Assembly (NCBI GenBank): GCA_965198115.1
Contig: OZ240241.1
Location: 2,400,001-2,464,000 of the forward strand
DNA length: 64,000 nt
From: Candidatus Latescibacterota bacterium
GTDB taxonomy: Bacteria > Latescibacterota > UBA2968
Direction: 5' to 3'
Part shown: piece after piece, positions 22,564 to 53,333 of the stretch
Position numbering within the stretch: position 1 is the stretch's first letter
Layout: each line of letters opens with the position of its first letter
Position numbers and translations under genes: made by a program
Notes under the pieces: generated by a model
What the model was told of the DNA's origin: nothing
Seen by the model: only the letters and a program-made list of their open reading frames with translations
Databases searched by the model: none

Positions 22564-22570
22564 TGTGACC

Positions 22571-34345: not shown

Positions 34346-34656
34346 ACAGTGAGGGTGTCCAGGGCGAGAGCTGGGACCGACAGCAAGAGGCTGAGGACAG
34401 AGGACAGAAGACAGAGCACGGAGGATAGCAGTAGACGGTGGACAGTAGACCCCTCGACTCCGCTCGGGGCAGGCTCTAGACGGTGATGACGGGATTGGCC
34501 CCCTATTGCTAATGACAGAGAACGGAGGCCATCACGAACAGGTACTGGATTCGTCGTGTGGCAATCTCCTACGCGCAGTGCGCTATGGAGCCCAGGGAGG
34601 ATGGTGGCATAGGTGCTCATCGCAACCAAGATGCGATGACGAGGAAGAGCCGGCAA
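34346..34656 (-). pseudogene. 5' remnant (promoter and signal peptide) of a propeller-HK paralogue, fused to the IS1380 fragment
   Basis: TTGCCG-17-CATCTT-7-ATG; MSTYATILPGLHSALRVG…LLLSVPALALDTLTV versus HK MCIPTSILSGLRSALRVG…LLTVPAYALDTLTV. Confidence 0.88.
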
Positions 34657-34884
34657 GCGAAGCTGCTTCAGGGGATTAATTCAAGTCAAAATTTTCATTT
34701 CAAAATGCAAAATGGATCTGTAGAGTTTTGTGAGGATGGTTCTTCAGGGCAGACTGCAAGGTCTTGTAGCTGGCGGCGTCTATCTACATCAGGACAGCAA
34801 GTCATCCACATCGAAGCGACTGGTCTTTTGTTCGACATTCGGTGGTCGGAAATCGATATTCGATACTGACAAGGAGGAATGCGC

Positions 34885-35715
34885 ATGCGTATCGATTCCC
34901 ACGTCCACGTGTGGACGCTCGGTGAGCCGCCGTGGACCCACAACGACGACAAGACCTCCCAGCGACCGGACTATCCGGGCCTGGTCGAAGACCTCATCCG
35001 GTACATGGACCTCAACGACATTGACCGCACAGTCCTGATCCAGTGCATGTACCACGGCTTCGACAACAGCTATATGTGCGAATGCCTGCGCCGCTTTCCG
35101 GACCGCCTGCACGGCGTGGCACTGCTCGACCCGCGAAAACCGGATGCCGCCACCGAGCTAGAACGCCTGCACCGCGAACACGGCGTAGAGGGCATGCGGC
35201 TATATCCGATCTCCGATGAGGACGCCTCCTGGCTGTCGGACGAGGGGCAAATCCCGCTGTGGGAAACGGCCGAACGGCTGGGCGTGCCGTTCACGTGGTT
35301 CGGGCGATGCCACCAGATCCCGTTGTTGGCGCCGATGCTGGAGCGTTTTCCCACGGTGAACGTGATCGTCGACCACTTCGGCGAGCCGATATTGTCCGAG
35401 GGGCTGGACGGCGACTTCAAGCTCCTCCTAGCGGCAGCCCGATACGGCAATCTCTATGTCAAAGCGACCCGGATCGACGGTCTATCCGAGCAGTCCTTCC
35501 CCCACGAGGACATTCATCCCTACATCAGAGCGCTCCACCAGGCCTTCGGCCCTGAGCGTATGCTCGGCTGCACGGGCTTCCCTGAAAACCCGCAGCGCGG
35601 CGAAGCCATCGGTTTCCGAGTGATCGAAGTTTTGGATTTTCTGTCAGAGGAAGACAAGGCGTGGCTGCTGGGAGAAACGGCCGCCTCGCTTTACGCTCCA
35701 CCTTCCAACCGATGA
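34885..35715 (+). CDS. Amidohydrolase (Amidohydro_2, lactonase-like)
   Basis: IDSHVHVW, DNSY, VDHFG, FGPERML; RBS AAGGAGG. Confidence 0.9.
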   Translation: MRIDSHVHVWTLGEPPWTHNDDKTSQRPDYPGLVEDLIRYMDLNDIDRTVLIQCMYHGFDNSYMCECLRRFPDRLHGVALLDPRKPDAATELERLHREHGVEGMRLYPISDEDASWLSDEGQIPLWETAERLGVPFTWFGRCHQIPLLAPMLERFPTVNVIVDHFGEPILSEGLDGDFKLLLAAARYGNLYVKATRIDGLSEQSFPHEDIHPYIRALHQAFGPERMLGCTGFPENPQRGEAIGFRVIEVLDFLSEEDKAWLLGETAASLYAPPSNR

Positions 35716-35832
35716 ATATCCATCCTGCCGACGACATTGCGGTGATATCTCTCACTCCGTGGCCACAGGCCTTGTTTGCACGGAGCGATGTGACTACATT
35801 TAGCCCAATGTGACCACAAGGAGACTTCGCTT

Positions 35833-36099
35833 ATGGACATCTCTATCCGCGAATTGAAAAGCGGTCTATCGAGATACCTACGGGAAGTGCAGAAAGGTGT
35901 AGTCATACGCGTGACGTCCAGGGGGAAGCCGGTGGCTCGTCTGGTGCCAATTCAACCGCCTACGTCGAGCGTGGAAATAAAGGACATCCCTGGGGTTGAC
36001 CCGGGTTCAGGTGGCAAACCAGCGGGAGCCGATTGTCCGGTTCGCGTTCTCAAGGGGCAGAAGACGTTATCGGATATCGTGATGGAAGACCGACGGTGA
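35833..36099 (+). CDS. Phd/YefM-family antitoxin
   Basis: ISIRELKSGLSRYL…VTSRGKPVARLVP; GTGA overlap with the toxin. Confidence 0.92.
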   Translation: MDISIRELKSGLSRYLREVQKGVVIRVTSRGKPVARLVPIQPPTSSVEIKDIPGVDPGSGGKPAGADCPVRVLKGQKTLSDIVMEDRR

Positions 36100-36518
36100 T
36101 CCTATTCCTCGACACTTCCGCGCTTGTTAAACTTTATGTCGACGAATCCGATTCCCGGAATGTCCGCGACTGGGTCGATGAAGCCGATGCGATCGCCTGT
36201 CAATGGCTGGCTTACGTAGAGGCTCGATCGGCGTTCGCAACCAAGCGTCGTCTCAGTGAGCTGTCGGACACTGAACTCGCTACGTGTAAACAGGCCTTCG
36301 AGGCGGACTGGGCGAGGTGTCACAAGGTCACCGTGACGGAGGCTTTACTGCGTCGAGCCGGCGCGATCAGTGAGCGACTCGGCCTCCGTGCCTATGACAG
36401 CGTGCATCTTGCGGGGGCCGATTACCTCCAGACTGCCCTTGGATCCCCAATCACATTCGGATCGTTCGACAGGCAACAGGTCGAAGCAGCCACTCAACTG
36501 GGACTGGCTATCGCTTGA
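36096..36518 (+). CDS. vapC: VapC PIN-domain toxin
   Basis: FLDTSALVKLY, YVEARSA, LRAYDSVHLA, SFD. Confidence 0.92.
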   Translation: MILFLDTSALVKLYVDESDSRNVRDWVDEADAIACQWLAYVEARSAFATKRRLSELSDTELATCKQAFEADWARCHKVTVTEALLRRAGAISERLGLRAYDSVHLAGADYLQTALGSPITFGSFDRQQVEAATQLGLAIA

Positions 36519-36520
36519 AC

Positions 36521-37054
36521 TCAGAGCAAGGATATCTGTGTGTCCTCACCCCCGCTCGTGGCTTCTCCTTGTGAATCTCCGGATGGGTCATAGGCCAGGA
36601 TTTCACAGAGACGATCCACAAAGCCGACCTGACCCTTGTGGAGTTTCTCTTTGGATGTCGCGACAGAGAACCACCCGGCCCTGTCGACTTCGGGAAACTC
36701 TGACTGCTTGCCGGATCGAGGGGGCCATTCCATCGAGAAGGTATTGCTTCGAATCGACTCCGGATCACAGTCGCCCTCTACCGCCCACGCCGTGATCCGT
36801 TTGCCGCCAGGCTGGGTCAATTCCCCGAGTTCCTTGAAATCACCTGTGATGGCTTCGTCAAATCCGGTTTCTTCCTGGAACTCACGTTGAGCGGCCTCGA
36901 ACGGATCTTCACCGTCCTCGTATTCACCTTTGGGGATGGACCAGGAAGCCTTGTCCTTGTTCTTCCAGAAGGGTCCTCCAGCGTGAACCAGTAAGACTTC
37001 CAGCCCGTCGTGTCGGAAGCGATACACGAGGATGCCCGCACTCTTTCTTGCCAT
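36521..37054 (-). CDS. NUDIX hydrolase
   Basis: Nudix box WSIPKGE…AAQREFQEETG; WPPRSGK…FPEVDR. Confidence 0.92.
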   Translation of the reverse strand: MARKSAGILVYRFRHDGLEVLLVHAGGPFWKNKDKASWSIPKGEYEDGEDPFEAAQREFQEETGFDEAITGDFKELGELTQPGGKRITAWAVEGDCDPESIRSNTFSMEWPPRSGKQSEFPEVDRAGWFSVATSKEKLHKGQVGFVDRLCEILAYDPSGDSQGEATSGGEDTQISLL

Positions 37055-37286
37055 AGCCTCTCCGATTTCTCTGTGCCACTAGTGCCAGGTCATCTTCGCG
37101 CCTTGAGATCCTGATGCGCTCGCTTGGCCTGATCGATCTTCCCGACTCGGAGAGTCGGTCCTACGCGAACTGGCGCGAAAAGTGCCGTCACGCCTGCTCT
37201 CTCGCTCCTCGACCGCTCACCCGCTCAGCTGTAACCGCTGTAACCGTGATCTTCGCTGCCGTCGGGCGACACGATCGAAACCCTCC

Positions 37287-39125
37287 TCAGGGCTGCCTCT
37301 CGTCGGACTGTTGTTCAAACCACCAGCGCCAAGCTTCGGGGCGCTCGTGCAGGAGTTCGCCGGTCATTTCTTGCAGGGCTTGGGTGGCGTGCTGGCGCAC
37401 CTGGGGGTCCTCGTCGTGCAAGACTGTTAGAAAGAACTCGAGGCTGTCCATTCGAGGTTGCAGTGAGAGCGCCAGGATCGCGGCTCGGCGGGTGGGGGTG
37501 TGCTCGTGCTCGAGGAGCTGGTGAAGGACATCCGAGTGCTCCTCGATGCCTTCGATCCCCTGAATGGCCTGGAGAGCAGCCACGCGGACCATGGCGTCCT
37601 GGTCTTCCAGGGCACCGCGCCAGATTGCTGCGTCTACTTCGCGCGAAATCGGGGCCAGGGCCCGCGCTACATTGCGGCGGACAATGACGTCGGGATCGCC
37701 GATGGCGGCGGCCAGGGCTTGGCGCGCCCAGTCGGTGGGAATGAACTTGAGGCCCTGAGAGGCGTGTTGGCGCACCTGTTCGTCTGTATGCTGCAAGAGG
37801 TCACTCAAGCGGTGGCTGGGTGCTTTGCGAGCGATCAGCGCCAGGCCAGAGGCTCCCCATCGCACGGTATCGATCTCGTCGTCGCGTGTCAGTGCCTCCA
37901 GGGCCTCCCGGGTGTAGGGTTCGCCCATTCTGGCCAGGGCTTCTGCCACGAGCCGCCGGATGTCGGCGTCGGGATCCTCTGCAAAGGGCAAGAGGACGGG
38001 GACTGCGTCGCGATAGCAAAGTGCTCCCAGGCTATGGATGGCGTCCGGCCGCGCGACCGGGTCTTGCAGGCGGTCGACTTGCTCGGAAATGTAGGCCGGG
38101 TCTTTGCACAGCCATCGGTAGTCCACCACCTCGCCGTCCAGACCGCAGGTGCGCCAACGCAGATGAGGACCGTCGATGGACACGATGCAACAATGATGCA
38201 CCGAGGTGGCAAAGGCGGTCCAATCTCCGGCATCCACGGGATAGAGCGGGGCGCCACCGCCGCCGGTCACCACGTAGATGACGCCGCTGTCGTCTTCCCG
38301 CTGATTCGCCTGCATTGGAAAGCTGCGTTCGTAGATGTGGTCGTGTCCATTGAAGATCACATCTACCTGATATTGTTCGAGGAGAGGAGCTAGGGCCTCG
38401 CGTTGCGTGACAGAAGGGCCGTGGTTCCCCGAGCTATAGGGCGGATGGTGGAACCAGACGACGCGCCACAGGGCAGACGTTTCCGCCAGGGTTCGCTCCA
38501 GCCAGGCGTACTGCTCCGTTCCGGGTCCAAACCCGCCGGAAGCGGTGTTCGTGTCCAGGGCGATGAACCGGGCGTTGCCGCAGTCAAAGGAGTACCAGGG
38601 GCCGCTGGGGAAGAAGTTGTAGAAGTGCTCGGAGTTCTGTTCGTGATTGCCGAGGACCGGGAAAAGTGGAATGTGGGCGAGCGCTTCCCCGAGCGGGGAG
38701 AAGAATTGCTCTTCCCATTGTTCGTAGACCGTTCCGCGTGAGACCAGGTCACCGGAGTGGAGGAGGAAATGAGGCTGGTGGCCGGCCATCTGACGACCGA
38801 CGCCAGCTGACTGTTCAGGGCTGGTGCGGGAGTCGCCGAATACGGCAAAGGAAAAGTTGGTAGAGTCGTTTACTGCGGTGCGAAAGGTGAAAGGGCCGGC
38901 CTGGGCATCCTGGGTCTGGATGCGGTAGCGGTAGGTGGTCTCGGGCTCCAGGGCCTGAAGCGCGACCTGGTGCAAAGTCACGGGCGCAGTCCGATCGACG
39001 TGGTGGCCGAATTCTGCAGTCAGGCCGTAATCCACCCGGGATGGGCCAGGGGCATCTGTTTCCCACAGCACGATCATTTCTTCGGAATGGTTGAATTGCA
39101 GGTAAGGGCCCTTGATGATTTTCAC
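37287..39125 (-). CDS. Purple-acid-phosphatase-type metallophosphoesterase with N-terminal FN3-like domain and C-terminal HEAT repeats
   Basis: GDSR, GDLV, GNHE, HHPPY, GHDHIYER; repeats D.D..VR..A..AL. Confidence 0.9.
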   Translation of the reverse strand: MKIIKGPYLQFNHSEEMIVLWETDAPGPSRVDYGLTAEFGHHVDRTAPVTLHQVALQALEPETTYRYRIQTQDAQAGPFTFRTAVNDSTNFSFAVFGDSRTSPEQSAGVGRQMAGHQPHFLLHSGDLVSRGTVYEQWEEQFFSPLGEALAHIPLFPVLGNHEQNSEHFYNFFPSGPWYSFDCGNARFIALDTNTASGGFGPGTEQYAWLERTLAETSALWRVVWFHHPPYSSGNHGPSVTQREALAPLLEQYQVDVIFNGHDHIYERSFPMQANQREDDSGVIYVVTGGGGAPLYPVDAGDWTAFATSVHHCCIVSIDGPHLRWRTCGLDGEVVDYRWLCKDPAYISEQVDRLQDPVARPDAIHSLGALCYRDAVPVLLPFAEDPDADIRRLVAEALARMGEPYTREALEALTRDDEIDTVRWGASGLALIARKAPSHRLSDLLQHTDEQVRQHASQGLKFIPTDWARQALAAAIGDPDVIVRRNVARALAPISREVDAAIWRGALEDQDAMVRVAALQAIQGIEGIEEHSDVLHQLLEHEHTPTRRAAILALSLQPRMDSLEFFLTVLHDEDPQVRQHATQALQEMTGELLHERPEAWRWWFEQQSDERQP

Positions 39126-39340
39126 CTAATTGCTCCTTTTCTGACTCCTTGTGTGGTTCTGTCCAATTTCTTGTTTGACTAATATAGTTGGGCAAGGCTC
39201 CTGGCCCGGTTTTCCTCTAGGCTCACGACGAGACATACTGGTGCGCGAATGTCATAGGCAACCACAGGAGCTTTGCGCAGTTGATCCGGCGTGGGGAACG
39301 GCGGGTCAAGCGCGCGGCTGAGAGAGAATTACGGGAACTG

Positions 39341-39372
39341 AAAAGCCCCGTCGATGTCTGAACCGACGGGGC
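39341..39372 (-). terminator. Intrinsic terminator after PhyH 39431-40369
   Basis: Stem GCCCCGTCG/CGACGGGGC followed by a U run on the minus strand. Confidence 0.65.
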
Positions 39373-39430
39373 CTTCGTGATTCAACCCACAGCGTGGTTG
39401 GGGGTAGAGGGTGTCAAATGATCCCGAACA

Positions 39431-40369
39431 TCACGCCGAACGGCGGAAAGGACGTTGCGAGCGACCTGTTGTCGCATCAGACGGGTTGGCCACGCTGACA
39501 GTTCCCGACGTATCGACCTCGAGCCGGCATTCTTCCGTACGTGCCGCTGAAGCCGGGCCGAACATCACGGCACGCTGTTCGGGTGTCATGCCATCGATGA
39601 TGTTTTTATCCCAGTAGGTATCGGGATCGAGGAAAAATCTGGACACGCCGGAACGCGTCGAAGTGCGGCTTGCGTATTTGAACAGGATAGCTCGGCGTTG
39701 ATGCTGGGCCTGCCAGGCGCGAGCCCCGTGAGTCTGAGCCCCGTCCATAAAGAAGATGACGTCACCGGCCCTGATGTTCGGTTTTTCCACGACGCCCATG
39801 TCGTCCTCGAAAGTGCGGACACCCGTGGGCATCGGATACTTCGACTTGTGGCTTCCCAGAACGCACGCGAATCCCCCGTCCTCGGGGCCGGAATCGCCGA
39901 GGGCATAGGTCACCGTAACGCCACCGACGTAGGTCATCCCGTTCTGATTCTTATAAGCTACGTAGGGATTGTGGGGATTCCCCGCGCCGTGGAGGTTGTG
40001 GTTCGCGGTGCCGGGGAGTCCGCCGATGAACTGAGGGCCGTGATCTAGACGGAAGCCTTTCCCGCACATCACCCGGAGGCGCGAAATGACCTGGGGGTGG
40101 GAGATCATCCTGCGATAGGGTTCGCAGTGTGGGGGTTTGAGCTGCAACAGATAGGGGAAACTGTTGCGCGTGCGGACGAGGGTGTCGCCCATCCAGCGGG
40201 GCATCGCGTTCTCGCGAAGGTAGTCGGACTCTTCGTCGGTTCCGTTCGCACATCTGTCCGCCAGATAGTCGATGGCGTCGTTGGCCGCTTTCAGTTCCTT
40301 CGGCGTGAGGACGTTGCGAACAACGAGATGGCCGTTGAGATCCCAGTAGTAGCGTTCTTTGTCAGTCAT
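39431..40369 (-). CDS. PhyH-family dioxygenase
   Basis: WDLNGHLVVRN, LHGAG, GGFACVLGSHK, AGDVIFF…THG…RRAIL. Confidence 0.9.
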   Translation of the reverse strand: MTDKERYYWDLNGHLVVRNVLTPKELKAANDAIDYLADRCANGTDEESDYLRENAMPRWMGDTLVRTRNSFPYLLQLKPPHCEPYRRMISHPQVISRLRVMCGKGFRLDHGPQFIGGLPGTANHNLHGAGNPHNPYVAYKNQNGMTYVGGVTVTYALGDSGPEDGGFACVLGSHKSKYPMPTGVRTFEDDMGVVEKPNIRAGDVIFFMDGAQTHGARAWQAQHQRRAILFKYASRTSTRSGVSRFFLDPDTYWDKNIIDGMTPEQRAVMFGPASAARTEECRLEVDTSGTVSVANPSDATTGRSQRPFRRSA

Positions 40370-40572
40370 CAGGGTGTCCCTTCAAAGTTTAAGGCGCACC
40401 ACAATCGCGACACCAGGCAAGGTAAGGTGGGTATCCGAAAATCGAAACCTGGAACGTCGAATTCTGACGCAGTGCGCATTCCATTGTCAGTTGAACTCCG
40501 TTTTGAAGGTCAAAGGGCTGATCAGTGGCCTGTAAACATATTGCCTTGTAGAAATTACCGATACAGTGTCGC

Positions 40573-40689
40573 TTCGAGTTCCTCGACTTCGCTCGGGATA
40601 AACTCCGTTGAGAAAGCCCCTCCTCGCTTTTTTTGCATGACAAGCGGGTTCTCGACGGAGTCTATCCCGAGCCTGCCGAAGGGCTCGAA
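40573..40689. repeat. Inverted pair of REP-like elements
   Basis: TTCGAGTTCCTCGACTTCGCTCGGGATAAACTCCGTTGAGAA and its near reverse complement at 40649-40689; related single units at 34451-34476 and 43043-43068. Confidence 0.7.
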
Positions 40690-40759
40690 CTGACGCCGCA
40701 ATACGTGCCGCCCAAAAACTCAGTGCCTCTTCTGTAGGTGCACCCAGTCGTCGCCCCGC

Positions 40760-41482
40760 CTAGGCCTTGCGCATTGCCCGCTGGTATTCCTTGATGCCCT
40801 CCCACGTCAGGTCGGGATCGGAGAAGATCGCGTGGTAGGCGGATTCTCGTTCTCGGATGTCCCTACCCTTTTCCAAAACCCTCGCAGGGTCGTCACCCGA
40901 CGGAATCTTCACCACCCCATCGCCGTCGGCAGCGACGACTTCGCCTGGGTGTACGAGGAGCTGATTGACGGTGATCGGCTCGTTGTGGCGCACGAGACTC
41001 AACACGCCGTGGCCGGGCGTCAGACCGGTTCCCCAAACCGGCAGACCGACGCGGTCTATGCCGGCAAGGTCCCGCACGGATCCGTCGACGATGATGCCCG
41101 TCACTCCAAGATGTCTGTGCGTAGCCGCCATCCCGTCTCCGAGGGAAGCGCCACGACCGGCCGTGGTGTCGACGTCTTTCATGATCGCCACCATCGGGCC
41201 CAGGGATTGGTCCAGAAAGTCGTAGTAATCGTCCCAAGGGATTCCCGGCCCGTCGGGGTCGTGTGTCGTCAACTCGCAGGTGACAGCGTATCCGATCGCC
41301 ATTCCTTGCTCGGGCAGCAGGCACGCCATGCCTGGTGCCATGTAGTTGATCGGTACTCCGCCCTTATCTTCGAGTTCTTTTCCGCCCTGGGTCGCCCCGC
41401 GAGCCTCGATGACGGCATTGAAAATGGTTGCGGTGTCGAGCTCTCTGAGCCCTTCGAATATTTCTGGTGATACCTGTCCCAT
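40760..41482 (-). CDS. RraA-like/HMG aldolase family protein
   Basis: GYAVT, LGDGMA, DGSVRDL, VHPGEVVAADGDGVV. Confidence 0.88.
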   Translation of the reverse strand: MGQVSPEIFEGLRELDTATIFNAVIEARGATQGGKELEDKGGVPINYMAPGMACLLPEQGMAIGYAVTCELTTHDPDGPGIPWDDYYDFLDQSLGPMVAIMKDVDTTAGRGASLGDGMAATHRHLGVTGIIVDGSVRDLAGIDRVGLPVWGTGLTPGHGVLSLVRHNEPITVNQLLVHPGEVVAADGDGVVKIPSGDDPARVLEKGRDIRERESAYHAIFSDPDLTWEGIKEYQRAMRKA

Positions 41483-41697
41483 CCTGTTGTCTCCTTTCGG
41501 CTGAGAGATTCCGATTGCTCTGTACTGCCAAGCTGAGAGATCTGTAAATCTGTTTGTTCCCTATGCATAAACGACTTGATGTCTCGATCCTACAAGGAGA
41601 TGCTACTGAACCGGTTCCGCGACCTTGCGTCGATCGTCTTCGTGTTTCAGACACGTTTTCCAAGACGGCGACGCGATCTTAATCGCTCATTCACGTA

Positions 41698-41743
41698 CCC
41701 CAGGGCTAACGCCCTGGGCTAAGATCTGCCGCCCTTTCAGGCG
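41698..41743. repeat. REP-like hairpin
   Basis: CCCAGGGCTAACGCCCTGGG hairpin followed by CGCCCTTTCAGG, a pattern seen in REPs linked to Y1 (RAYT) transposases. Confidence 0.5.
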
Positions 41744-41801
41744 GACACCCTGTCTTTTCTCTGCGGTATCTGACACGCGCTACGAAATCGCCGAAATAGG
41801 C

Positions 41802-42875
41802 TCAAGCAGGTGCGTCCGAAAGAATCCAGTCGGAGCGGCTGATCTGATAGCTTCTGATGTGGGCCATGGGACCGTCGTCTTTGATGTACTGCACGACGAA
41901 CAGGTCTCCCGAGGGCAACTGTAACCAGCCGGAATAGGCGCCGTCGCTGTGGGCGCCGCGGTCGTGATCGATAAAGAAGTAACGGTGGCCGCCGGCGTGC
42001 TTGTCCGCGTTCTGGACGCAGTCCGGGTCGACGGCAACGGCCCCTGTTTCGACGTGGAGGACCAGGTTGCGTGGGGGTGTGAGGCGCTGAAAGCCGTGTA
42101 CGACCGCCACTTCGCCGCTGCTCAACACGCCCGCGTGGGGTCGGCCGACACAGCACGTAAGAAATGTCGGAAACGGACCCAACCAGGTTTCTCCATCATC
42201 CCTCGAGATCGCCTTATAAGCGCACTTTCGCTCGAGGTCCTCTCGCAAGTAGCAGACCAGAACGCCATCATCAAGTTCGACGTAGGTCCCCTCGTTCAGC
42301 CACAGCTCCCGATCGGAAGCGACGTGCACCGCCGCTTGCCACGATTCACCCTGGTCTGTCGACACGAAGGCGTTGTGCAGCCAAACAACGTCGGGGCGGT
42401 CTTTTGGACCCACCCTGTCTGCGCCGATGACGATTTTTCCGGATCGAGTCCTGAAGATACAGGGGCAGATGTGGCCTTTGATGCCGGTGGAGACCATGTC
42501 GCTCCAGGTGTGTCCTCCGTCGGAGGATCGCCAGAGGAAGATCTCGGTATCCGGTACGTGTTCGGGCTCGTGTCGGGGAAGGATGTCACAGATCAGCAGG
42601 AGCTCGGAACCGCCCAGTGACAACAGACGCGGGTTGTTGAGACGGCCCCCGGTGGAAGAATCGGGGATTTCGTGAATGATCTGTTTGCCGCTCCAGGTGC
42701 GTCCGCCGTCGGAGCTGATGTGACAGGCGATGCGTCCGAACGGGCGCGCCGAATGGCCCAAGCTTTCCCGATAGATGCAGACCACGGAGCCGTCTTCGCA
42801 TTCGGCGAGATCGGGAAAGGCTTTGTAGACTGTGTCTTCGCGAAAGAGAATGGATCTTATCACGATAAACTCCAA
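41802..42875 (-). CDS. Sialidase-like BNR/Asp-box beta-propeller
   Basis: AFP motif; Asp boxes SSDGGRTW, SSDGGHTW, STDQGESW, SRDDGETW. Confidence 0.88.
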   Translation of the reverse strand: MEFIVIRSILFREDTVYKAFPDLAECEDGSVVCIYRESLGHSARPFGRIACHISSDGGRTWSGKQIIHEIPDSSTGGRLNNPRLLSLGGSELLLICDILPRHEPEHVPDTEIFLWRSSDGGHTWSDMVSTGIKGHICPCIFRTRSGKIVIGADRVGPKDRPDVVWLHNAFVSTDQGESWQAAVHVASDRELWLNEGTYVELDDGVLVCYLREDLERKCAYKAISRDDGETWLGPFPTFLTCCVGRPHAGVLSSGEVAVVHGFQRLTPPRNLVLHVETGAVAVDPDCVQNADKHAGGHRYFFIDHDRGAHSDGAYSGWLQLPSGDLFVVQYIKDDGPMAHIRSYQISRSDWILSDAPA

Positions 42876-42969
42876 AAATTGATGATGCGCGTTGCTGACC
42901 GGGCAGAGATTCTTTACGCTGGAGAGTGGATATGGCTATGACAATCCTTTATTACAATGTCTATCCGTG

Positions 42970-43241
42970 TTCTTCTCTTTTGTGACCAAAAGAGAAGCAG
43001 AAAAGTCCCACTCAGACGCCGTGGAGGCTTGTGGCCCACGCTCCCTCGACTCCGCTCGGGACAGGCTCCAGTACGATCCGGTTCGGTGACGACACCTGTG
43101 ACAACCCCCAAGTGCCTCCCCCACCCAACCCTATCCCCCCTGGAGTTGAAACAACGACGTTGCTCGCTGCCGCCTTTACCTGGGCCGCTATCGCGTGGGA
43201 GATGGGTTGTTCAACGGTCTTTAGGAGCGCCTGGTTTCTGA
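42970..43241. repeat. Dispersed ~270-bp repeat, copy 2 (contains an inserted REP unit)
   Basis: Colinear with 54728-54987 through GCCGCCTTTACCTGG…GCGTGGGAGATGGG…AGGAGCGC.TGGTTT. Confidence 0.9.
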
Positions 43242-44235: not shown

Positions 44236-44246
44236 GCCCTCCTCAG

Positions 44247-45626: not shown

Positions 45627-45776
45627 GCAAGCCCTCCTCAGCGGTCGCGCTGCGGAGGACAGGCAGGTGTGGGTGATGGACAAATGACTGGTTCGACGCA
45701 ATCCTTTCGCTCGGGGTGCATCCATCTGCGCGTATGTGAGAAGCGCAGGAACCACGTTGATCGATAGGAGTCGCCG

Positions 45777-46469
45777 ATGGAAGTAGCTTGCCTGCGAGGA
45801 CCAGACACCGATGCCCGGGTCAGATTCTACTTAGAAAAAGATCTGGGTCTCCCTTTGACGGACTTCCCGGAAGAAGGCGTTCTATTCCACGAGTCACCCA
45901 GCCACTGCCTGGAGTTCAGAAGAATTGGGAATGGTGCTGTATTTTCGGGCAATCAGGCCATCACGCGCCTGCTTCGGCCGATGATAGAGAACCACTCGCT
46001 CTGGGAACTCTACACACCCTACGGCCTCGCAGAAATGAATCGGATCTGTCAACCGGAAGGCATCGAGATCAAGGGTGGAGGATTTCACTATACCCTCGCA
46101 CCCGAGCACACGCCCGAGGACGTGCCGGAGTCAGCGCCGGTCCACAATCACACGCTGCCTGACCAAAACACCTACGATAAGCGTTTCCTGAAAGCATTCT
46201 ATGTTTCAGCCAATGGGGTAGAAGCTTCCCTCTCCCAGATTCGGTGGAAAACGGACGCGTTCATCGAAATCGCAGTCGACACCCAGGAGGGTCATAGAGG
46301 GCGAGGCTACAGTACAGCTGTGGTACACGCAGCTACGAAATGGATCCACTCGCGGGGCGCCGTAGCCCACTACCCCGTTCTCCCATCGAACATCCAGTCC
46401 GTCAGAATCGCTCGGCGCCTCGGATACAGAGTGGCCTGGCAGGAGATCTATGCGCAGGAGCGGTCCTGA
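45777..46469 (+). CDS. GNAT N-acetyltransferase
   Basis: EIAVDTQEGHRGRGY…NIQSVRIARRLGY; RBS AGGAG. Confidence 0.85.
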   Translation: MEVACLRGPDTDARVRFYLEKDLGLPLTDFPEEGVLFHESPSHCLEFRRIGNGAVFSGNQAITRLLRPMIENHSLWELYTPYGLAEMNRICQPEGIEIKGGGFHYTLAPEHTPEDVPESAPVHNHTLPDQNTYDKRFLKAFYVSANGVEASLSQIRWKTDAFIEIAVDTQEGHRGRGYSTAVVHAATKWIHSRGAVAHYPVLPSNIQSVRIARRLGYRVAWQEIYAQERS

Positions 46470-46507
46470 CTTAATCCGTGATGCTCTCATGATGTCCTCT
46501 ATAAACT

Positions 46508-47449
46508 CTACCCATCAAGAGTCGATTCAAGCAGCGAACGAACATAGGGGATCGCCTCTGCCAGACGGTCCTCGCCAGGCGATGCGGGCTTTCCCAGATG
46601 CTCGGGGTTTGCAATCCCGGTGAAGCCGACGTCCCTGAGGGCCGCCACTATGGCCTGGAGGTCGACACGTCCCTCGCCTGGAAGGACCTCACGGCCTGCC
46701 GGCCAGCGATCGGTGTGATCCCGGACCTGGCAGAAGTGAATCTTTCCGGCAAATGTTCTGACGAGCGATGGCACGTCGCCACCGGGGATGTCCATGCCGG
46801 TGCAAAGGGTGACCCCGTTCGACGGACTGGGCACGGCATCGACGAGGCGGGTCAGCTCCTTCCAGTTTCCGACGAGGAACGGTCCGCCCCATCCTTCCGC
46901 CGCGTAGCTGTCGTAATCTTCGATTCGGACCCCCTCGGCAATCGCCTTTTCGCGCACTCCATCGGCGAGGAGTCGATGGAGGCTGTGGTTCCCTATCCCG
47001 ATGCCGTGGGCCTCGGCTTCCGGAATGATCTCCTCGTAGATTGCGATCAGGCCGTCCCTGCACGCCTCTTCGTCTGCTGGATCGAGTGGCCGGCCCAGAT
47101 CCACGTAGTGCAAGACGGATGTGATGCCGACCTCGCCCAGACGCTCGAGCATCCGCTTCATCGCGTCGATGCAGGTCCGATCGCGGGTGAGGAGGATGTC
47201 GGGATTCGTGGAACCTTGCCGCCAGGGGCGGTCCGGCCACCTCGCGAACCAGTAGGTTGCGGACGGCACTGAGATTCCTCTCTGTTCGAGCCCTTCCTTC
47301 AAGACGCGAAGAGCGTTCGCGTCAGGGTATCCCCTCTCCTCGTAGCCCGGGAGTGACGCGCAGGACACGAAGACGGTGTTCACTCCGAGCTGTTCACAAC
47401 GCTCGACGGTTGCGTCGACATCGGTTGTGGCTGGGATTCCTATTTTCAT
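46508..47449 (-). CDS. Sugar phosphate isomerase/epimerase or mannonate dehydratase-like TIM barrel
   Basis: SPSNGVTLCTG, KIHFCQVRD, PGEGRVD, PEH. Confidence 0.75.
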   Translation of the reverse strand: MKIGIPATTDVDATVERCEQLGVNTVFVSCASLPGYEERGYPDANALRVLKEGLEQRGISVPSATYWFARWPDRPWRQGSTNPDILLTRDRTCIDAMKRMLERLGEVGITSVLHYVDLGRPLDPADEEACRDGLIAIYEEIIPEAEAHGIGIGNHSLHRLLADGVREKAIAEGVRIEDYDSYAAEGWGGPFLVGNWKELTRLVDAVPSPSNGVTLCTGMDIPGGDVPSLVRTFAGKIHFCQVRDHTDRWPAGREVLPGEGRVDLQAIVAALRDVGFTGIANPEHLGKPASPGEDRLAEAIPYVRSLLESTLDG

Positions 47450-47486
47450 TGAATGGCCTCAATAGTATGACAACCAGATCGTTTTT

Positions 47487-47624
47487 TTACGAATACGCGC
47501 GCAACACTTCGAGGATGCGCGCCAGGTATTCCTCGGTCGTCGTAGCCGAACCTTCGGTCATCCCCTCGCCCTGACCGATCACGTCACTCGTATCGTAGTT
47601 GAGAATCACCCTGTAACGCTTCAT
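47487..47624 (-). pseudogene. Short ORF, probable truncated gene start
   Basis: MKRYRVILNYDTSDV…EYLARILEVLRAYS* (45 aa) with RBS-like AAGGTGG. Confidence 0.35.
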
Positions 47625-47831
47625 CCACCGTCCACCTTTGTCACTGCATCGGTGCAGGTTGAGCTGAACGGGCTCGCTGAGTGAACGAATTATGAGCTAC
47701 ATGGAATGTGTCGAGAATATTGACCACCACGACTTTCCAAGATGCGACACGCGACCTTACATTGTATCATGTAGCTTGGCTGTGCAATAACCCCTCGTGT
47801 TCCATTCATCCGACACACGAAAGTTATCCAC

Positions 47832-48155
47832 TTGACTCTGCTCTGCCTTATCGTCGTCCTCGCGTCAGCCATCTACATTTTCCTCATCTCAAAGAAGTAC
47901 ACCGACTACGTCCAGATCACGCGACCGTATATCGATGAGGTCACCGAGAAAAACGAGCGTTTGGCCGAAGACATCGAGACCGAAAAGGAGGCCCGTCGTA
48001 CAGTGGTCAGCCAGGTGAAGGATGAAGAGATGGCCATCGGCGACCTCAAGATCACCATCGAGAATGTCGAAGCAGAGATCGCCGAGGAGAGGGCGGTCGA
48101 AGAGAAGATAGAACTCTCCAAACAGATGAAACAGTTCACCAAGCGGAAATCCTGA
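47832..48155 (+). CDS. Single-TM coiled-coil protein
   Basis: Hydrophobic N-terminus followed by an E/K-rich heptad region. Confidence 0.65.
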   Translation: MTLLCLIVVLASAIYIFLISKKYTDYVQITRPYIDEVTEKNERLAEDIETEKEARRTVVSQVKDEEMAIGDLKITIENVEAEIAEERAVEEKIELSKQMKQFTKRKS

Positions 48156-48170
48156 AAGCAACCTATACCT

Positions 48171-49885
48171 ATGGTCTTAGAAATATTGGCTCTATCCGGG
48201 TTTCTCAACGGTGAAACTATAGAATGACAAGGTCATAGATCGTTCCCTACGCTTGGTTGTGTGTGTAGGACAATCAAAGCGAAGGGGGTGCGACCTATGA
48301 CCGGGAGCAGATTACTATCGAAACTGCTGAGATTCAAGGGGTTCCGTGTTGTCAGCTGGTGGTTTGAGGGGAGAAGCTGTTTCGTCATCGCCGTAAAGCC
48401 ACATAAGAATGGTTGTTGTTGTCCGGAGTGCGGCCGTCGAGGTAAAATCGTCCGCACAATGCCCCATCCGCGTCGGTGGCGTGACATTCCGGTGTGCGGG
48501 TGGAGGGTCTGGCTTCTCTACCATCCTCGGGAGATTCGGTGTCCTACCCACGGTCGTGTGGTCGAGGAGATTCCGTGGGCGGAGCGGTTCTCTCGGGTGA
48601 CGTATCGCTTCGAGTATGCCATGCTGCGCTACTGCCAGACCATGACGCAGAAGGCGGCGTCCGAGTTACTGCGCATCTCTGCCTCGACGCTGTCGGATCT
48701 CCTTCACCGATCCATCACGCGGCTTCGTGAAGGTCATCGTATCCGAGGGCTCAAAACCATCGGGATCGACGAGATCTCCTACGCCAAGCGTCACAGGTAC
48801 GCCACGCTCGTTTACGATCTGGACCGCTCCTGCGTGGTGTGGGTTGGCCGCGGCAGGGCGCGTAAAACGATCGATCGGTTCTTCACAGAGGCTCTCAGTC
48901 CCTACCGGAGATCCAAGATCGAGTGGGCCTGCTGCGACATGAGCGAAGCTTACATCGGAGCCATCCAGGAACACTGTCCGAATGCCAAGCTGGTCCTCGA
49001 TCGCTTTCACATCGTCAAGGCTCTCAATATGCCGCCGTTGACGAGGTCCGTAAGGACCAGTGGCGTAAAGCTGCCCCGGATGAGCGCAAAGCCATGAAGG
49101 GCCTCCGATGGCTCCTCTACCGGCACTCAGCGACACGCTCCAGAGGGGATACTCGGACACTCAAAGCACTGGAGAAGGCGAACTACCGAATCTATAGAGC
49201 CTGGAGACTCAAGGACGAGTTCGAGCAGTTCTGGGAATACAAAGCGCCCTGGGCTGCCGAACGCTTCCTGAAATGCTGGACGACGTCCGCACTCAGAAGT
49301 CGACGTGAACCCCTGCGAAAGTTCGTCAGGACCCTGCGACAGCACTTCTTCGGCGTCCTCGCATTCGTGAACACGCGTCTTACCAACGCCATCGCCGAAG
49401 GCCTCAACCGAATCGTCCAAATCGTCAAGAACCGAGCCAGCGGATTCCGCACACTCGACGCATTCAACGATATGATCTTCCTTACCGTCGGAGACATAAA
49501 CATCCCTGAGCAGATTCCGAAGAGGTTCCGCACACTCTAACCGCGCCCCCATGCCAGGAACCACGGCACCTTCACCCACTTCATCTCGTTGAGAGATCCG
49601 GATATAGCCAAAATATTCACCCTGCTCTCTATGGTTGCCGCTCTGGCAGTGCGATTCTTGACGTCTCGCAACACGGAAGCCCTCGAGGTCCAGAAGATCG
49701 AGGCCGATAACGAGAGCCGACATCTAAACTCGACCTACGATCAGGTCTTTGAAGCGCGCCGAGAGGCGGAGGGTCGTCTTCGCTTGTTCCAGCACGACAG
49801 GGCAGAACTGGAACAGTACCTGGAAGGGGCCGAGGGAGAGCTCAAGGAAATAATCAAGCGGAACGAGGAACTAGAAGGAGACTGA
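48171..49885 (+). pseudogene. Single-TM coiled-coil protein interrupted by ISL3
   Basis: MVLEI (48171) rejoins FTLLSMVAALAVRF…NEELEGD* after removing the IS. Confidence 0.7.
48188..49609 (+). mobile_element. ISL3-family element copy 1; transposase ~48297-49540 frameshifted near 49028
   Basis: Ends GGCTCTATCCGG…/…CCGGATATAGCC; TSD GAAATATT/AAAATATT; CPECG, IGIDE, CDM, DRFH, TNAIAEGLN. Confidence 0.93.
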
Positions 49886-50192
49886 GGAAGCCGAGCCAAC
49901 GAAGTGGGCAACTGGGAGAGCCCTTCGATACAGCGTCCACGGTCGCTTTCTCAGGACACGGCGGGCGACTTCATTTCCTACACAATCACACGACGTCTCT
50001 ACATCTCACTCTTGTAGTTTGCCGGACGGACACGGAAAGCCTCGTGTTCTCCCCTACCATGCTTCACGTCAATCGGATCCCTGGCAGTTCGATGGATTCC
50101 TCGTGATGGACAGCCCGATTCGGCCCCGCGATATTCGAGCAACTTCAAAGTCCTTGCGACGTACCCGCCCACCTTCAGCGAAAGGGTAGCCC

Positions 50193-51041
50193 ATGCCCGG
50201 AACCGATTCGTTCTACACGTCAGACGAGTTGCGTGCACGTCTGAGCATCTCAACCCTGGTCTTCCGCGGGTTCAGACCCATTGGAGAGGGAGCCTTGAAC
50301 GCGTTACGGAGCTCTGGCATTCGCAGGATCGAGCTCATCGAAAGCCCCGAGCAATTCGACATGACGAGTTCGACATCGATGGCCAACGTCGCCGAAGTCT
50401 GCGACGCTTGCGGCGTCGAGATCGGCGCCTATCACTGCTACAAGACGGACTTCAACGATGTCGATTCGGAAGCCGTCCGGAATGAACGCGTCACCCAATG
50501 CAAGCGGCAGATCGACACGATGCTCGAGCTCGGAGGCAATCTCTGGGGCTGCCACGCGGCGGTACCCAACACAATGGTGCGGAAGTCATACGAGGAACTG
50601 GCCGATCACGTCGAAGGGACGGAGGCGTCCGTGACGATCGAGAACTTCGCGCGCGACGGCGTGAACGTCGACGAGCGGATCGACTTTCTCGACGACTTCG
50701 ACCACCCGAAGGTGGGGATGATCCTCGATATCGGTCACGTGAAGGACAAGGATGGCGGAAACCCGATGACGACGCCCGGCGGTCCCACGCGGATCCTCGA
50801 GCGCTGCGGCCACCGGCTCCGCCACGTCCACCTCCACGGTTTCAAGGAGGGCCGGGACCACAACCCGCCGCTCGTGGAAGGCGACGAGATCCAATGGTTG
50901 GAACTGTTCACCATGCTCCGCGCCAAGGAGTACGGTGGGCACATCAACTTCGAACCGGCCGGGGAGCCACGCGCCTTCAAGAGCATCGAGCACGCTGGCG
51001 CAATGCCCGATCGTCTCCCTCAGCTGGCGAACGCCGGCTGA
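50193..51041 (+). CDS. Sugar phosphate isomerase/epimerase (AP endonuclease 2 TIM barrel)
   Basis: TIEN, LDIGH, HVHLH, DHNPP..G, NFE. Confidence 0.85.
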   Translation: MPGTDSFYTSDELRARLSISTLVFRGFRPIGEGALNALRSSGIRRIELIESPEQFDMTSSTSMANVAEVCDACGVEIGAYHCYKTDFNDVDSEAVRNERVTQCKRQIDTMLELGGNLWGCHAAVPNTMVRKSYEELADHVEGTEASVTIENFARDGVNVDERIDFLDDFDHPKVGMILDIGHVKDKDGGNPMTTPGGPTRILERCGHRLRHVHLHGFKEGRDHNPPLVEGDEIQWLELFTMLRAKEYGGHINFEPAGEPRAFKSIEHAGAMPDRLPQLANAG

Positions 51042-51072
51042 AGCTCAAAGGCGTGTAAATTGCGGACCGTGC

Positions 51073-51501
51073 TTATTCCTCAGTTTGCATCATCGAGCTG
51101 ACTTCGAAAACCCTCTCGAGAGGATAGATGATACCCGAGAGCTTGACGTTCTCGCCGTGGTGCTCGTTGATGAGCGCCTGGCTCTTCTCATTCTCCAGGT
51201 AGTGAAGAACCCAGCCTTTTAGATCGGCCAGCTCCTTGCCATCCTTTGTAGTGGCACGGACGACGCGTAATGAATGCCGATGGCCGAAAACGCTGCACTG
51301 TGCCGCCGCGCCTTTCCGCTTCTTCAGGGCACAGCCCAAGCAGAAGTTGCTGCCCTCCACGCTCGCGTGGATCACACCTGGGGGTGCGGTCGCCGTCCGA
51401 TCCGGGCTTGGGGATTCATCATCGGCATAGGCAACGATCGTGACGCAGGCAACCGCTACTGCTACAATTGGAGATACTCTCCTTTTCAGTACTGAAGACA
51501 C
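51073..51501 (-). CDS. Exported hypothetical protein with a Cys/His cluster
   Basis: Signal peptide; CLGC…QCSVFGHRH. Confidence 0.65.
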   Translation of the reverse strand: MSSVLKRRVSPIVAVAVACVTIVAYADDESPSPDRTATAPPGVIHASVEGSNFCLGCALKKRKGAAAQCSVFGHRHSLRVVRATTKDGKELADLKGWVLHYLENEKSQALINEHHGENVKLSGIIYPLERVFEVSSMMQTEE

Positions 51502-51734
51502 GTTTCACCTCCATTGGATTGCGCGTGGGACAGGGCTTTCACTCACGAGACTCTCATTTTAGCACTCACCATCGACACCTCCTTCATTGTGTTCGATGAG
51601 CCATCACAGTTGACCTGAGCGGCTTCGCTAGATGCGTCAGTTCCCACAGCCATTGGCGCTGGGTGATGGCTGCGCCGTGAGATCTTGATGCATCTATTGT
51701 GTGCGAATGATCTTCGCGACCGGGACGGTCGGTC

Positions 51735-53099
51735 CTACGGAATCGGCGCGAGATTCAACCGATCGGAGGCTCGGTCCAACACGGTCGTATCCTTGCGGGC
51801 GTGGAGCGCCGCCTCTCGGGCCTGGGCGACCAGATGGATCGCCGCGCCCGGGGCGCGCGTGTCGCGAAACTCTTCGACCATCCCCTGATGATGCTTCATC
51901 CCGTGCATCTCGGTGGCGCTGTCCCTTGCCGCCCACAAACCCAGCTCCGCCACCAGCCGATCCACGTCGCCGCCGGTTCCGCAATAGGTTTGCGCGTGGC
52001 TGGCAGCTCCGTTCGCGTCGTTCTGAACGATCGCCTCTCTGATCTCCTCGATACTCGATCGACCTCCAAGCGGTGATAGCGGCTCCAGATCCACCCCCGA
52101 CTGGGTCTCGGGTCCGAGCGTCCACAGCAACAGCCCTCTCGCCCCCAGCGCCGGAAACCTCCTGCCGACCCATCGCAGTGCGTTCGCACCCGTCATCGCG
52201 TGTATCCCCATCGGATTGGTCGACTCGCTCCGCGAGAACACCTCGGACGCCGCCAGTGAAACCGCGTCGGTGGCGCCCATCAAAGAGAGTCCGCCAGACA
52301 GTGCGGCCGCGATCACCTCCGCCAGCTCCTCGAGTGGGTGCGATAGCAGATCCTGACACAGGGATCCGATTCCCGTATCCTCCGAATCCTCATCCAATTG
52401 GATTTCCGACGGCAACCTCTCACGGACAAGCTTCTCGACGCGTTCCGCCGGAGGCGCGTCTGCCCAGACGGAAGGCATGAAGTTATAACGCACGACGGGG
52501 CGCAACAGGATGGGCGCAAGGTCCCACCCCAGGAAATCCAGCAAGCGGATGCTGTTCACGACCGCGATCAGCTTGTGTTCGTCGAACCGATAGTTGTTGA
52601 CCGCCACCCCCGCCAACGCCTCGAGCGCCACCTCTCTCGGCGCGCGGTCGAGCAGCCAGAGGAAGTAGTGCTCGGCGGCATTCGGAACATTGCATCTGAG
52701 GCATCCATAGAACGCCTCCACCGTCGCCTCGATGCTTCCCTCGCCGACCGGGTCGATCTCCGGCATCACGTAAGGTCCCGAGGCTGCATCGTGGATGTGC
52801 GCATTCGCCAGGGCCACATCCTGGACCAGCGGCAACAGACGTTCCTTCTCCGGCAGTCGTGTCATCGTATGCCGGATGCCGTGGAGCGCTGCCACCGGAT
52901 GCAAAGGACCCCCGTGATGCACGAACGGCATCTCCGTCGATCGGATCACGGCCAGCGTGAGCGCGGTCATCATCCGCTCTTCGGAGGCCCCTTCGAGAAG
53001 CTTTGCCGTCGTCTCCTCGACGATCTTCTCAGGCGGCGTTTCCTCGATGAAATGAACTAGGGGCTCGATGTCCTCGGAAAAGCGAATCCCCTGAGCCAT
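51735..53099 (-). CDS. Hypothetical all-helical protein with internally repeated His motifs
   Basis: 454 aa; RBS GAGGA; HHGGPLH, DEHKLI, MGIHAMT, EMHGMKH. Confidence 0.7.
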   Translation of the reverse strand: MAQGIRFSEDIEPLVHFIEETPPEKIVEETTAKLLEGASEERMMTALTLAVIRSTEMPFVHHGGPLHPVAALHGIRHTMTRLPEKERLLPLVQDVALANAHIHDAASGPYVMPEIDPVGEGSIEATVEAFYGCLRCNVPNAAEHYFLWLLDRAPREVALEALAGVAVNNYRFDEHKLIAVVNSIRLLDFLGWDLAPILLRPVVRYNFMPSVWADAPPAERVEKLVRERLPSEIQLDEDSEDTGIGSLCQDLLSHPLEELAEVIAAALSGGLSLMGATDAVSLAASEVFSRSESTNPMGIHAMTGANALRWVGRRFPALGARGLLLWTLGPETQSGVDLEPLSPLGGRSSIEEIREAIVQNDANGAASHAQTYCGTGGDVDRLVAELGLWAARDSATEMHGMKHHQGMVEEFRDTRAPGAAIHLVAQAREAALHARKDTTVLDRASDRLNLAPIP

Positions 53100-53221
53100 A
53101 CGATCGTCCTCTCAGATCCTATTGCGAGTTCGATGATCGAAACGGGCAGTCGTGCTCGTTTTCATTCCACCGCACCGTCCCGCTTCGATCGATTGTGGAT
53201 ACGTGGCAAGCAGAGCCTACG

Positions 53222-53260
53222 CATCGCGACCAAGATGCGATGACAGGGAACGCTGTGCAA
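53222..53260 (-). promoter_or_regulatory. HK-type promoter TTGCAC-17-CATCTT-7-ATG
   Basis: Shares CATCGCATCTTGGT with the 34.6 and 44.2 kb copies and upstream GATTGGG with the 22.6 kb copy. Confidence 0.6.
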
Positions 53261-53333
53261 TTGCGACCGATTGGGACAATTACACACCTTCACGCAGAAG
53301 AGTGGATATAGATACTCAAACCCATTTTGCGCA

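Follow-up and report, generated by a model that had tools for sequence, protein, structure and literature searches.

The window analysed here is a stretch of 64,000 nucleotides (positions 2,400,001-2,464,000 of contig C1, a single 8.43-Mb contig) from the genome of a Candidatus Latescibacterota bacterium (G000). It contains many short metabolic genes, insertion sequence (IS) elements and, on the minus strand at 18136-22563, one gene that Pfam assigns to the beta-propeller (Reg_prop)-HisKA-HATPase sensor histidine kinases (HK). Detached 5′ and 3′ ends of this HK family lie throughout the window and elsewhere in the genome. They frame unrelated genes with a polarity relative to the HK, and in another genome two tRNA-Glu loci hold identical copies of an integrase-less unit that has such ends and is bounded by attachment (att) sites. 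The window gene is present as three frameshifted pieces (20809-22563, 19521-20954 and 18136-19587) and is one of about 20 loci of the family in G000. An uninterrupted frame was retained in one of 17 HK paralogs (two if one with a stop in the signal peptide is counted), versus 44 of 51 single-copy orthologs. Because of this excess of breaks, and because the copy in the congener (G001) contains stops, we favour decay as the cause of the frameshifts in the assembled sequence. The closest known sensors are those of the Reg_prop/Y_Y_Y/HisKA/HATPase kind, of the hybrid two-component type of Bacteroidota. Like such sensors it has a signal peptide, beta-propeller repeats, Y_Y_Y (in two relatives), HisKA and HATPase_c, but neither a receiver nor an AraC domain was found in the two full-length relatives scanned, and most copies in G000 are broken. 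What is said below of mobilization and displacement is drawn from assembled contigs.

We use the term head for the 5′ end of the HK gene, that is, a −35 box, a 17-nt spacer, a −10 box, usually an ATG at +7, and the start of the signal peptide. The native head lies at 22411-22646 on the minus strand, with TTGCAC as −35 box (from 22599), 17 nt, CATCTT as −10 box (22576-22571), the ATG at 22563 and a signal peptide of the 'SALRVG' subtype. An initial annotation of the window had reported that this promoter architecture recurs on the same strand. Indeed, TTG[CT]NN-N17-CATCTT(N)GG starts at 22599, 34656, 44235, 53260 and 9418, followed by an ATG after 7 nt at 22.6, 34.6 and 53.2 kb and after 8 nt at 9.4 kb, the ATG at 44.2 kb being mutated to ACA. 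The coding remnants reported there are also real, MSTYATILPGLHSALRVG...LLLSVPALALDTLTV at 34.6 kb and TYFTIHPGPRSAL at 44.2 kb. The orphan head at 34345-34714 (minus strand) belongs to the SALRVG subtype, contains an insert of ~160 nt and runs in frame, from a fusion point at 34346 where 2 nt overlap, into the 3′ half of an IS1380 transposase gene; the first intact gene 3′ of it is of the isochorismatase family (32566-33414, minus strand). The head with the mutated start codon (44156-44245, minus strand) lies 5′ of a GNAT gene (43211-44005, minus strand), and its upstream part resumes at ~45627-45683, past an IS3-family insertion with a 15-bp target duplication. At 53218-53283 (minus strand) a promoter and ATG remain, homology stopping a few nucleotides past the ATG; this head has 23 identical nt in common with another head and is followed by a single-copy 454-aa gene (51735-53099, minus strand) without a Pfam or PHROG match. 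The head at 9370-9525 (minus strand) is split by a REP-like insert, leaving TTGTTC-17-CATCTT, and is fused to the start of a PhyH-type gene. Truncation points vary among heads. A weak sixth head at 39.3 kb (39293-39345, minus strand; E = 0.02) keeps a terminator and the −35 region, has no −10 box and precedes a metallophosphoesterase-HEAT gene; three more heads lie just beyond the window, at 65.0, 68.7 and 69.9 kb. The curated list for G000 comprises 30 heads, 13 on HK genes and 17 orphans.

The initial annotation had allowed that the motif might simply be the general housekeeping promoter placed before arbitrary genes. The hexamers do match those of tRNA promoters of G000; however, a genome-wide search returned 20 matches, where a single Markov-simulated sequence, scaled from 4 Mb, gave an expectation of ~4. 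Of these matches, 17 were 5′ ends of the HK family, with 60-150 nt of common context that is specific to HK heads and often with common coding sequence. Moreover, a profile built without the 53.2 and 9.4 kb copies, the two that a general promoter could most easily have accounted for, recovered both (E = 2.6e-5 and 4.7e-4), indicating that they are true homologs. With this context and homology we reject the general-promoter explanation, to which we assign a negligible probability. Judged by sequence similarity, the motif recurs because a sensor-kinase gene has multiplied, mostly in broken form, and has left its 5′ end behind. Head DNA was present in seven of 132 genomes of the class, strongly in four of the seven, and a scan of a metagenome collection gave three matches; viral collections gave none for head or tail.

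Because its hexamers resemble those of 14 tRNA promoters of G000 (TTGA/TTGC/TTGT-17..18-TA[TC]NTT), the head is a predicted sigma-70-type promoter with a predicted leaderless start. Both boxes and their spacing were retained in 14 of the 17 orphan heads (13 by pattern, the 9.4 kb variant being read separately), and a same-strand gene follows 15 of the 17. In the 11 orphan heads that align without spacer indels, mismatches affected 3 of 99 nt in the boxes and 30 of 187 nt in the spacer (p = 7e-4), a count that leaves out six orphan heads and is biased by ascertainment, as detection favours intact boxes. Fusion of a head to a PhyH gene recurs in three diverged copies, at 9.4 kb of the window, at 4,994 kb of the genome and in metagenome locus L100, the latter two being 87% identical. 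We consider it likely that heads were kept as promoters for the genes that came to lie behind them.

The counterpart of the head is the tail, an orphan 3′ end of the HK gene. G000 has 33 orphan tails, nearly all of which extend to the last codons. Their starts vary: in 39 measured tails, nine of them from other genomes, the distance to the conserved TFT codons ranges from 7 to 256 nt. Eight lie downstream of the HK in the window, all on the minus strand: tail 1 at 17916-18008, the weak tails 2 and 3 at 16997-17061 and 16475-16510 (~35 nt), tail 4 at 8630-8923 before a PQQ-repeat propeller gene, tail 5 at 6914-7074 before an MBL-rhodanese gene, tail 6 at 5242-5349 before a DUF4440 gene, tail 7 at 4480-4531 before a zinc alcohol dehydrogenase gene, and tail 8 at 1894-2142 before a hairpin and an att site. 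Seven of these eight are followed by a gene, often within 10-150 nt and with a ribosome-binding site, and no att, arm (defined below) or head lies between tail and gene in these seven. Arrays of the form tail-gene-tail or HK-gene-tail recur in genomes G005, G012 and G031, and tails precede cargo in G001. The cargo genes are mostly enzymes, and most are complete and closely flanked. BLASTN of 66 downstream flanks detected no cargo cassette in two arrays; cargo recurs across arrays at the family level only, as DUF4440 and MetE-like genes. Among eight DUF4440 matches in the genome, the three best sit between two tails and the fourth directly after an HK (window 4533-4997; genome 395.5, 2,981.2 and 5,115.5 kb), the three being only 25-42% identical. 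Likewise, G000 and G005 each have a MetE-like gene flanked by tails (40%).

Local duplication of the window HK end as the source of the tails was ruled out. For the 26 aligned tails, identity to the best paralog is 74-95%, compared with 55-80% to the window HK, and tails within one array are no more alike than others (0.82 vs 0.80, p = 0.24). Since tails of one array show no such likeness, and since mismatches are in excess at third codon positions (115/75/308 for the three positions, summed by hand), sequence comparison indicates that the tails are derived from different, once-functional paralogs. Heads or tails make up 41 of 56 family fragments outside HK genes, and all 14 in the window locus. 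Conservation within the family is highest over the first ~150 and the last ~300 nt, and in 22 of the 26 aligned tails 28-50 identical nt are common to the tail and another tail or HK end.

The initial annotation had described a mirror-image array, with HK promoter and N-terminus remnants upstream of the HK. An arrangement of heads upstream and tails downstream exists, albeit imperfectly: a decayed tail at 50006-50118 (50.1 kb) and a tail at 57404-57500 (57.4 kb) preceding an O-methyltransferase gene, both on the minus strand, lie upstream of the HK, and the 9.4 kb head lies downstream. Across G000, 39 of 50 orphans lie within 50 kb of an HK body, and all 39 are on the strand of that HK. Heads were found upstream in 11 cases and downstream in three, and tails upstream in seven and downstream in 18 (p = 0.003; p = 0.023 without the window locus). 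Furthermore, the six clear upstream heads of the window locus all have the 7-nt spacing subtype of the resident HK, versus seven of 17 elsewhere (p = 0.02). These two statistics lend support to the proposal, also made in the initial annotation, that the HK 5′ end is a recombination anchor. For the very heads that it named, however, the proposal is weaker, because the 34.6 kb head starts a block lying between genes that are neighbours in the congener and because an att junction separates it from the 22.6 kb HK.

The amidohydrolase and PhyH genes lie 95 bp apart in G001. In the window they are separated by a block of ~3 kb composed of the head, the IS1380 3′ half, the isochorismatase gene, a repeat and a GNAT gene. 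The initial annotation had asked for indels bounded by heads, and one edge of this block is of that kind: the 34.6 kb head is the 5′ edge of this indel, but the other edge has neither tail nor att, and no HK adjoins the block. This head looks like the product of a gutted insertion, that is, an insertion plus a deletion, rather than an end displaced from the 22.6-kb HK. The two genes were adjacent in one of 29 other loci, and a head was nearby in none of the 29; no outgroup for the pair was found among 28 further loci, so the direction, insertion or deletion, is not polarized. The GNAT gene behind the 44.2 kb head has a 69% homolog in G001 without a head upstream. The closest paralog of the propeller of the window HK (80-86% aa) lies at 4,807-4,822 kb of G000 (L189), next to the G000 ortholog of the PDH/citrate-synthase-type genes that in G001 adjoin the amidohydrolase and PhyH genes; part of the window may thus have come from that region.

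These observations bear on a plainer account, in which islands of an HK plus cargo were inserted serially and site-specifically, to be scattered later by IS elements, and the kinases then eroded down to whichever piece a neighbouring gene needed, the ends being passive throughout. The scarcity of uninterrupted paralogs fits such accretion and decay, as do the multi-copy sequence that makes up ~12% of the G000 genome, two pairs of IS3-family copies with swapped flanks (a sign of IS-mediated rearrangement) and the tandem full HKs at 5,275-5,288 kb of G000; the 34.6 kb head agrees with such a path as well. On the other hand, erosion alone predicts no polarity around a surviving HK, which was observed, and it predicts middle fragments, of which there were none among the 14 in the window locus. 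Nor does it anticipate that a gene comes after seven of the eight downstream tails without an intervening att, arm or head, or that the six clear upstream heads belong to the subtype of the resident HK. We regard accretion and decay alone as rather unlikely.

A more specific possibility is a dedicated site-specific recombinase acting on the heads or tails, as in an integron. Integrons consist of the integrase IntI, the sites attI and attC and the promoter Pc, and give rise to co-oriented single-gene arrays behind a reusable promoter. The loci described here likewise have single, co-oriented and mostly whole genes behind a reusable, in this case predicted, promoter. The comparison with integrons drawn in the initial annotation fails, however, on enzyme and site. 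The IntI model TIGR02249 stayed below its cut-off in all five genomes searched, and of 21 tyrosine-recombinase matches none lay in the window locus. No fixed attI- or attC-like point was found at the borders (no attC covariance model was run), the 39 tail junctions being spread over 7-256 nt, and there are many promoters rather than one. Potential sites for such an enzyme do exist. In the mobile head subtype a 7-7-7 palindrome, CATCGCA-TCTTGGT-TGCGATG, spans the −10 box and start codon (window 34618-34638); it is perfect at 34.6 kb and near-perfect in several heads, but neither the native 22.6 kb head nor the older paralogs have it. It could be an operator or an RNA hairpin. In the tails, the last ~30 nt keep synonymous codons in 78-100% of copies and can fold, but the hairpin is weak (~−5 kcal/mol), synonymous conservation is also high elsewhere in the tail, and relatedness of the copies confounds this measure. 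Finally, G000 has three short matches to IS91-type transposases, of which two lie within 1-6 kb of family remnants, and the G001 array has a further one, but no long IS91 transposase frame was found in G000. Taken together, we consider a dedicated recombinase very improbable. Carriage by IS91/ISCR elements was likewise rejected, as the G000 matches are short and as G030, which belongs to another family, does not have any of its six full copies beside the two mini-islands described next.

Two loci of G030, L036 and L037, share 1,822 bp at 99.8% identity between different flanks. The shared unit consists, in order, of a 20-bp repeat, an arm of ~110 bp, a head, one BNR gene, a tail, a hairpin and the 20-bp repeat again. 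The repeat is the 3′ end of tRNA-Glu, and identity begins and stops there. The unit has retained direct repeats of the attL/attR type and has no integrase, BNR being its sole gene. One copy abuts an intact tRNA-Glu(ttc) and is otherwise adjoined by remnants only, while the other is ~97 kb from tRNA-Glu(ctc), past an island that encodes a primase as well as a large serine recombinase of full length; the left flanks of both resemble remnants of a recombinase end. The BNR cargo is 98% identical to two copies in G000, which belongs to a different family. The exact 16-mer of the repeat occurs five times in G000 and in G030, three times in G002 and in G032, and at most twice in each of the other 49 genomes. 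An att lies ≤450 bp upstream of three of the 30 G000 heads, versus 0.12 expected, in the order att, arm, head, in some cases with a terminator before the head, and an att also precedes heads in this order in G002 (two contigs), G030 (two) and metagenome locus L100. A scan of the metagenome collection for the terminator-att pattern gave no match. In G001, a tail array runs into a recombinase remnant, an att and an intact tRNA-Glu(ctc).

The recombinase genes suggest a source for the arm. The frame of a 5′-truncated serine recombinase gene in G000 continues into the tRNA-Glu(ctc) complement. Resolvase, Recombinase and zinc-ribbon domains were identified both in this type of gene (L060, 5′-truncated) and in a full-length one (L061), and proteins P0002 and P0021 matched PHROG 95, an integrase. 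Near the C-terminus, 30 of 42 recombinase homologs have the att-encoded peptide, followed by the tRNA complement or by another tail, and three of these recombinase tails resemble arms that precede heads: that of P0021 resembles arm A, and those of P0013 and of P0011/P0017 resemble the two G002 arms. We infer that the integrase gene contains the att, with the arm as the attP-side tail of the integrase. Integration would then swap the C-terminus of the enzyme, a possible directionality switch. A similar att-in-integrase arrangement is known from phage Mx8, and in two viral contigs a related att-like palindrome lies inside a recombinase gene, with no tRNA. The family, whose att would lie in its own 3′ end, is exemplified by L060:748-2199 (G000 3,317,746-3,319,197) and comprises proteins P0002-P0041. 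A literature search that covered few subscription papers found no description of kinase-end arrays, nor of a serine recombinase reading through a tRNA-Glu attP; for the latter, a prior description is possible in the TIGER paper, which was outside the search and reportedly deals with integrase genes split at att.

The window HK and its tail array are themselves enclosed in a 25-kb att-bounded block (1746-27058). On its left, all on the minus strand, lie the decayed 3′ end of a large serine recombinase gene (27059-27188; identified by a profile from three copies including its own, by BLAST to L036 and by translations), a degenerate att core copied from the tRNA-Glu 3′ end (27040-27058) and arm A (26972-27040), the attP-side recombinase C-terminal tail HAYATLVVARNPSLLLIQLREA*, which matches the end of the full-length homolog P0021. 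Its right end is a terminator-like hairpin followed by an att core, 19 of 21 nt of which are identical to the tRNA-Glu 3′ end (1746-1822, minus strand). Neither att is beside a tRNA-Glu, and the block has no recombinase, its only transposase being that of an IS1595 element. Since a small ORF just 5′ of the native head is colinear with G001, the 27-kb att and the HK may represent different insertions. HK-led units were very probably carried on tRNA-Glu islands of serine integrases. Elsewhere in G000, two att copies (3,147,258 and 2,594,505) have an equal half-site on both sides, as if recombined in inverted orientation. Other heads or arms are found beside tRNA-Thr (two copies around an HK), beside tRNA-Gly with a small resolvase, and beside tRNA-Leu (5,106,190-5,117,565; 1,155,100-1,157,000; 3,535,900-3,536,250), and these may be further island types carrying the HK gene. 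An array of 20 tRNA genes at 2,870,558-2,872,531 lies near a decayed serine recombinase match at 2,881 kb.

We propose that a large serine recombinase moved tRNA-Glu islands in which the HK gene came first, and that the HK gene spread with them. Units of the form att-head-cargo-tail-att would have been moved in trans and accumulated in tandem, to be scattered later by IS elements. Illegitimate or IS-linked joining at scattered points would then have removed the 4-kb kinase body or put other DNA in its place, so that a head or a tail remained beside the cargo. Finally, incoming circles may have recombined at the HK ends, where conservation of the first ~150 and last ~300 nt makes a RecA-dependent single crossover most plausible, pushing the old end outward as in Rhs loci; such displacement would in turn account for the bias of heads to lie upstream and of tails to lie downstream, and the stretches of 28-50 identical nt would in principle be enough for RecA. 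We judge end displacement to be rather probable for the tails; for the heads named in the initial annotation its probability falls somewhat short of even. For the combined proposition, that heads and tails serve as promoters and as recombination footholds on tRNA-linked islands, we lean slightly in favour. The most ambitious version, a two-tier, integrase-free counterpart of the integron, in which the HK supplies promoter and landing pads, RecA shuffles single-gene units and the tRNA-Glu serine integrase carries gutted cassettes between families of Latescibacterota, is speculative, and we think it rather unlikely to hold as a whole.

Several observations weigh against this proposal. Ten of the 39 orphans near an HK are on the wrong side of it, and the orphan lists were curated by hand and contain sites that are not independent. 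MutS is present, and a tail identity of 55-80% is low for a RecA crossover; the five downstream window tails and tail 1 are only 55-80% identical to the end of the resident HK. With the exception of the G030 unit, no cargo cassette occurs twice with equal boundaries. The 34.6 kb block separates two genes that are still paired in G001; it begins with a head fused to an IS fragment and has neither tail nor att at its far end. As for the carrier, no att or arm lies upstream of the 34.6, 44.2 and 53.2 kb heads, 27 of the 30 G000 heads have no att within 450 bp, the att copies near G000 heads never adjoin a tRNA-Glu, and the recombinase gene at the G000 tRNA-Glu(ctc) is 5′-truncated. Lastly, the competence gene comEC is broken in both G000 and G001.

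The state of comEC also bears on a one-sided alternative, in which linear DNA with another HK paralog and the gene next to it was captured by homology-facilitated illegitimate recombination, with homology in the kinase and an illegitimate join near the old end, which would stay in place. Scattered tail junctions (7-256 nt in 39 tails) would be expected from such joins, an 8-nt microhomology connects head and BNR cargo in G030, and matches to comEC and dprA without stops were found in G005, G012 and G030. However, the process is reported to be rare and usually to remove about as much DNA as it adds (PMC3240628). In addition to the broken comEC genes, the fact that most cargo genes are whole with short flanks argues against it, and it leaves the att-bounded identical units unexplained. 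We therefore consider capture of this kind improbable.

Among known systems, the closest parallel is provided by Rhs loci, where a full copy is followed by 3′ pieces, of differing length, of a paralogous gene and for which a circle and a single crossover have been proposed (Jackson et al. 2009, PMC2935791). As in these displacement arrays, same-strand 3′ fragments of variable length lie below a full gene, each with different downstream DNA. Several points set the present loci apart. A sensor kinase takes the place of the Rhs anchor, and what it carries are complete, unrelated enzyme genes instead of toxin tips. The 5′ end, together with its predicted promoter, stays behind as well. Finally, the tails have closer matches in other paralogs (81-95%) than in the end of the resident gene (55-80%), a comparison that corresponds to clade restriction in Rhs and for which the six upstream heads do share the resident subtype. 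An Rhs core with toxin tip and immunity gene was not found; the locus would work like an Rhs locus but is not one. Cis-mobilizable elements (CIMEs) have lost integration and transfer genes, keep attL and attR, occur in tandem at tRNA 3′ ends and are described as decay products moved with a neighbouring integrative and conjugative or mobilizable element (ICE or IME; PMC5704250). The G030 unit and the window block, which lacks a recombinase, resemble the elements so described in keeping att repeats without integrase or transfer genes of their own. Points of difference are that the 1.8-kb unit has kinase-remnant ends and is found as identical copies at two tRNA-Glu genes, and that the integrase is a serine recombinase whose own gene would contain the att. 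The tycheposons of Prochlorococcus, compared here by description, are also tRNA-targeting, island-building cargo elements; a minority have large serine recombinases, and they leave partial tRNAs and integrase fragments (bioRxiv 10.1101/2020.12.28.424599). The head/tail units, by contrast, have no integrase or replication gene, and kinase-gene anchors are not mentioned in the accessible part of that report. On this analysis, the array appears to work like Rhs displacement inside CIME-like tRNA islands, without itself being an integron or an Rhs locus.

Cassette-like arrays without an integron integrase usually go unexplained, and the present case ties them to a concrete carrier, integrase-less tRNA-Glu mini-islands with a family of serine recombinases, and to a known displacement mechanism, to which it would add a 5′-end version that donates a predicted promoter. 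The 98% identical cargo points to recent transfer between two families of an uncultured phylum. Parts that can be tested are a promoter of ~40 bp, an att core of 20 bp, and serine integrases that apparently target a conserved tRNA and change their own C-terminus. Each ingredient has a precedent; it is the combination that is surprising.

Other features of the window include an IS3-family element at 30267-31646 and 44247-45626, of which there are 15 full copies and whose target duplications are unusually long (13-15 bp). An intergenic repeat family of 200-300 bp with a 26-bp perfect palindrome lies at 32524-32675, 42970-43210 and 54720-54955 and has copies of 76-100% in G001. The joint of an X1 contig that skips 34626-44205 rests on 30 letters on one side, is likely to lead to another head and was not used. 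Other contigs of run X1 match the window at 35319-37679, 41712-42998, 45599-48213 and 49585-53359 without difference, an agreement that is not independent, as X1 is probably the source sample. A Phd/PIN toxin-antitoxin pair lies within the upstream array at 35833-36518. Just inside the 27-kb att, at 25266-26900, the IS1595-family transposase gene is accompanied by a TTGACA-17-TATCTT promoter and then by a tRNA-Gln-like gene.

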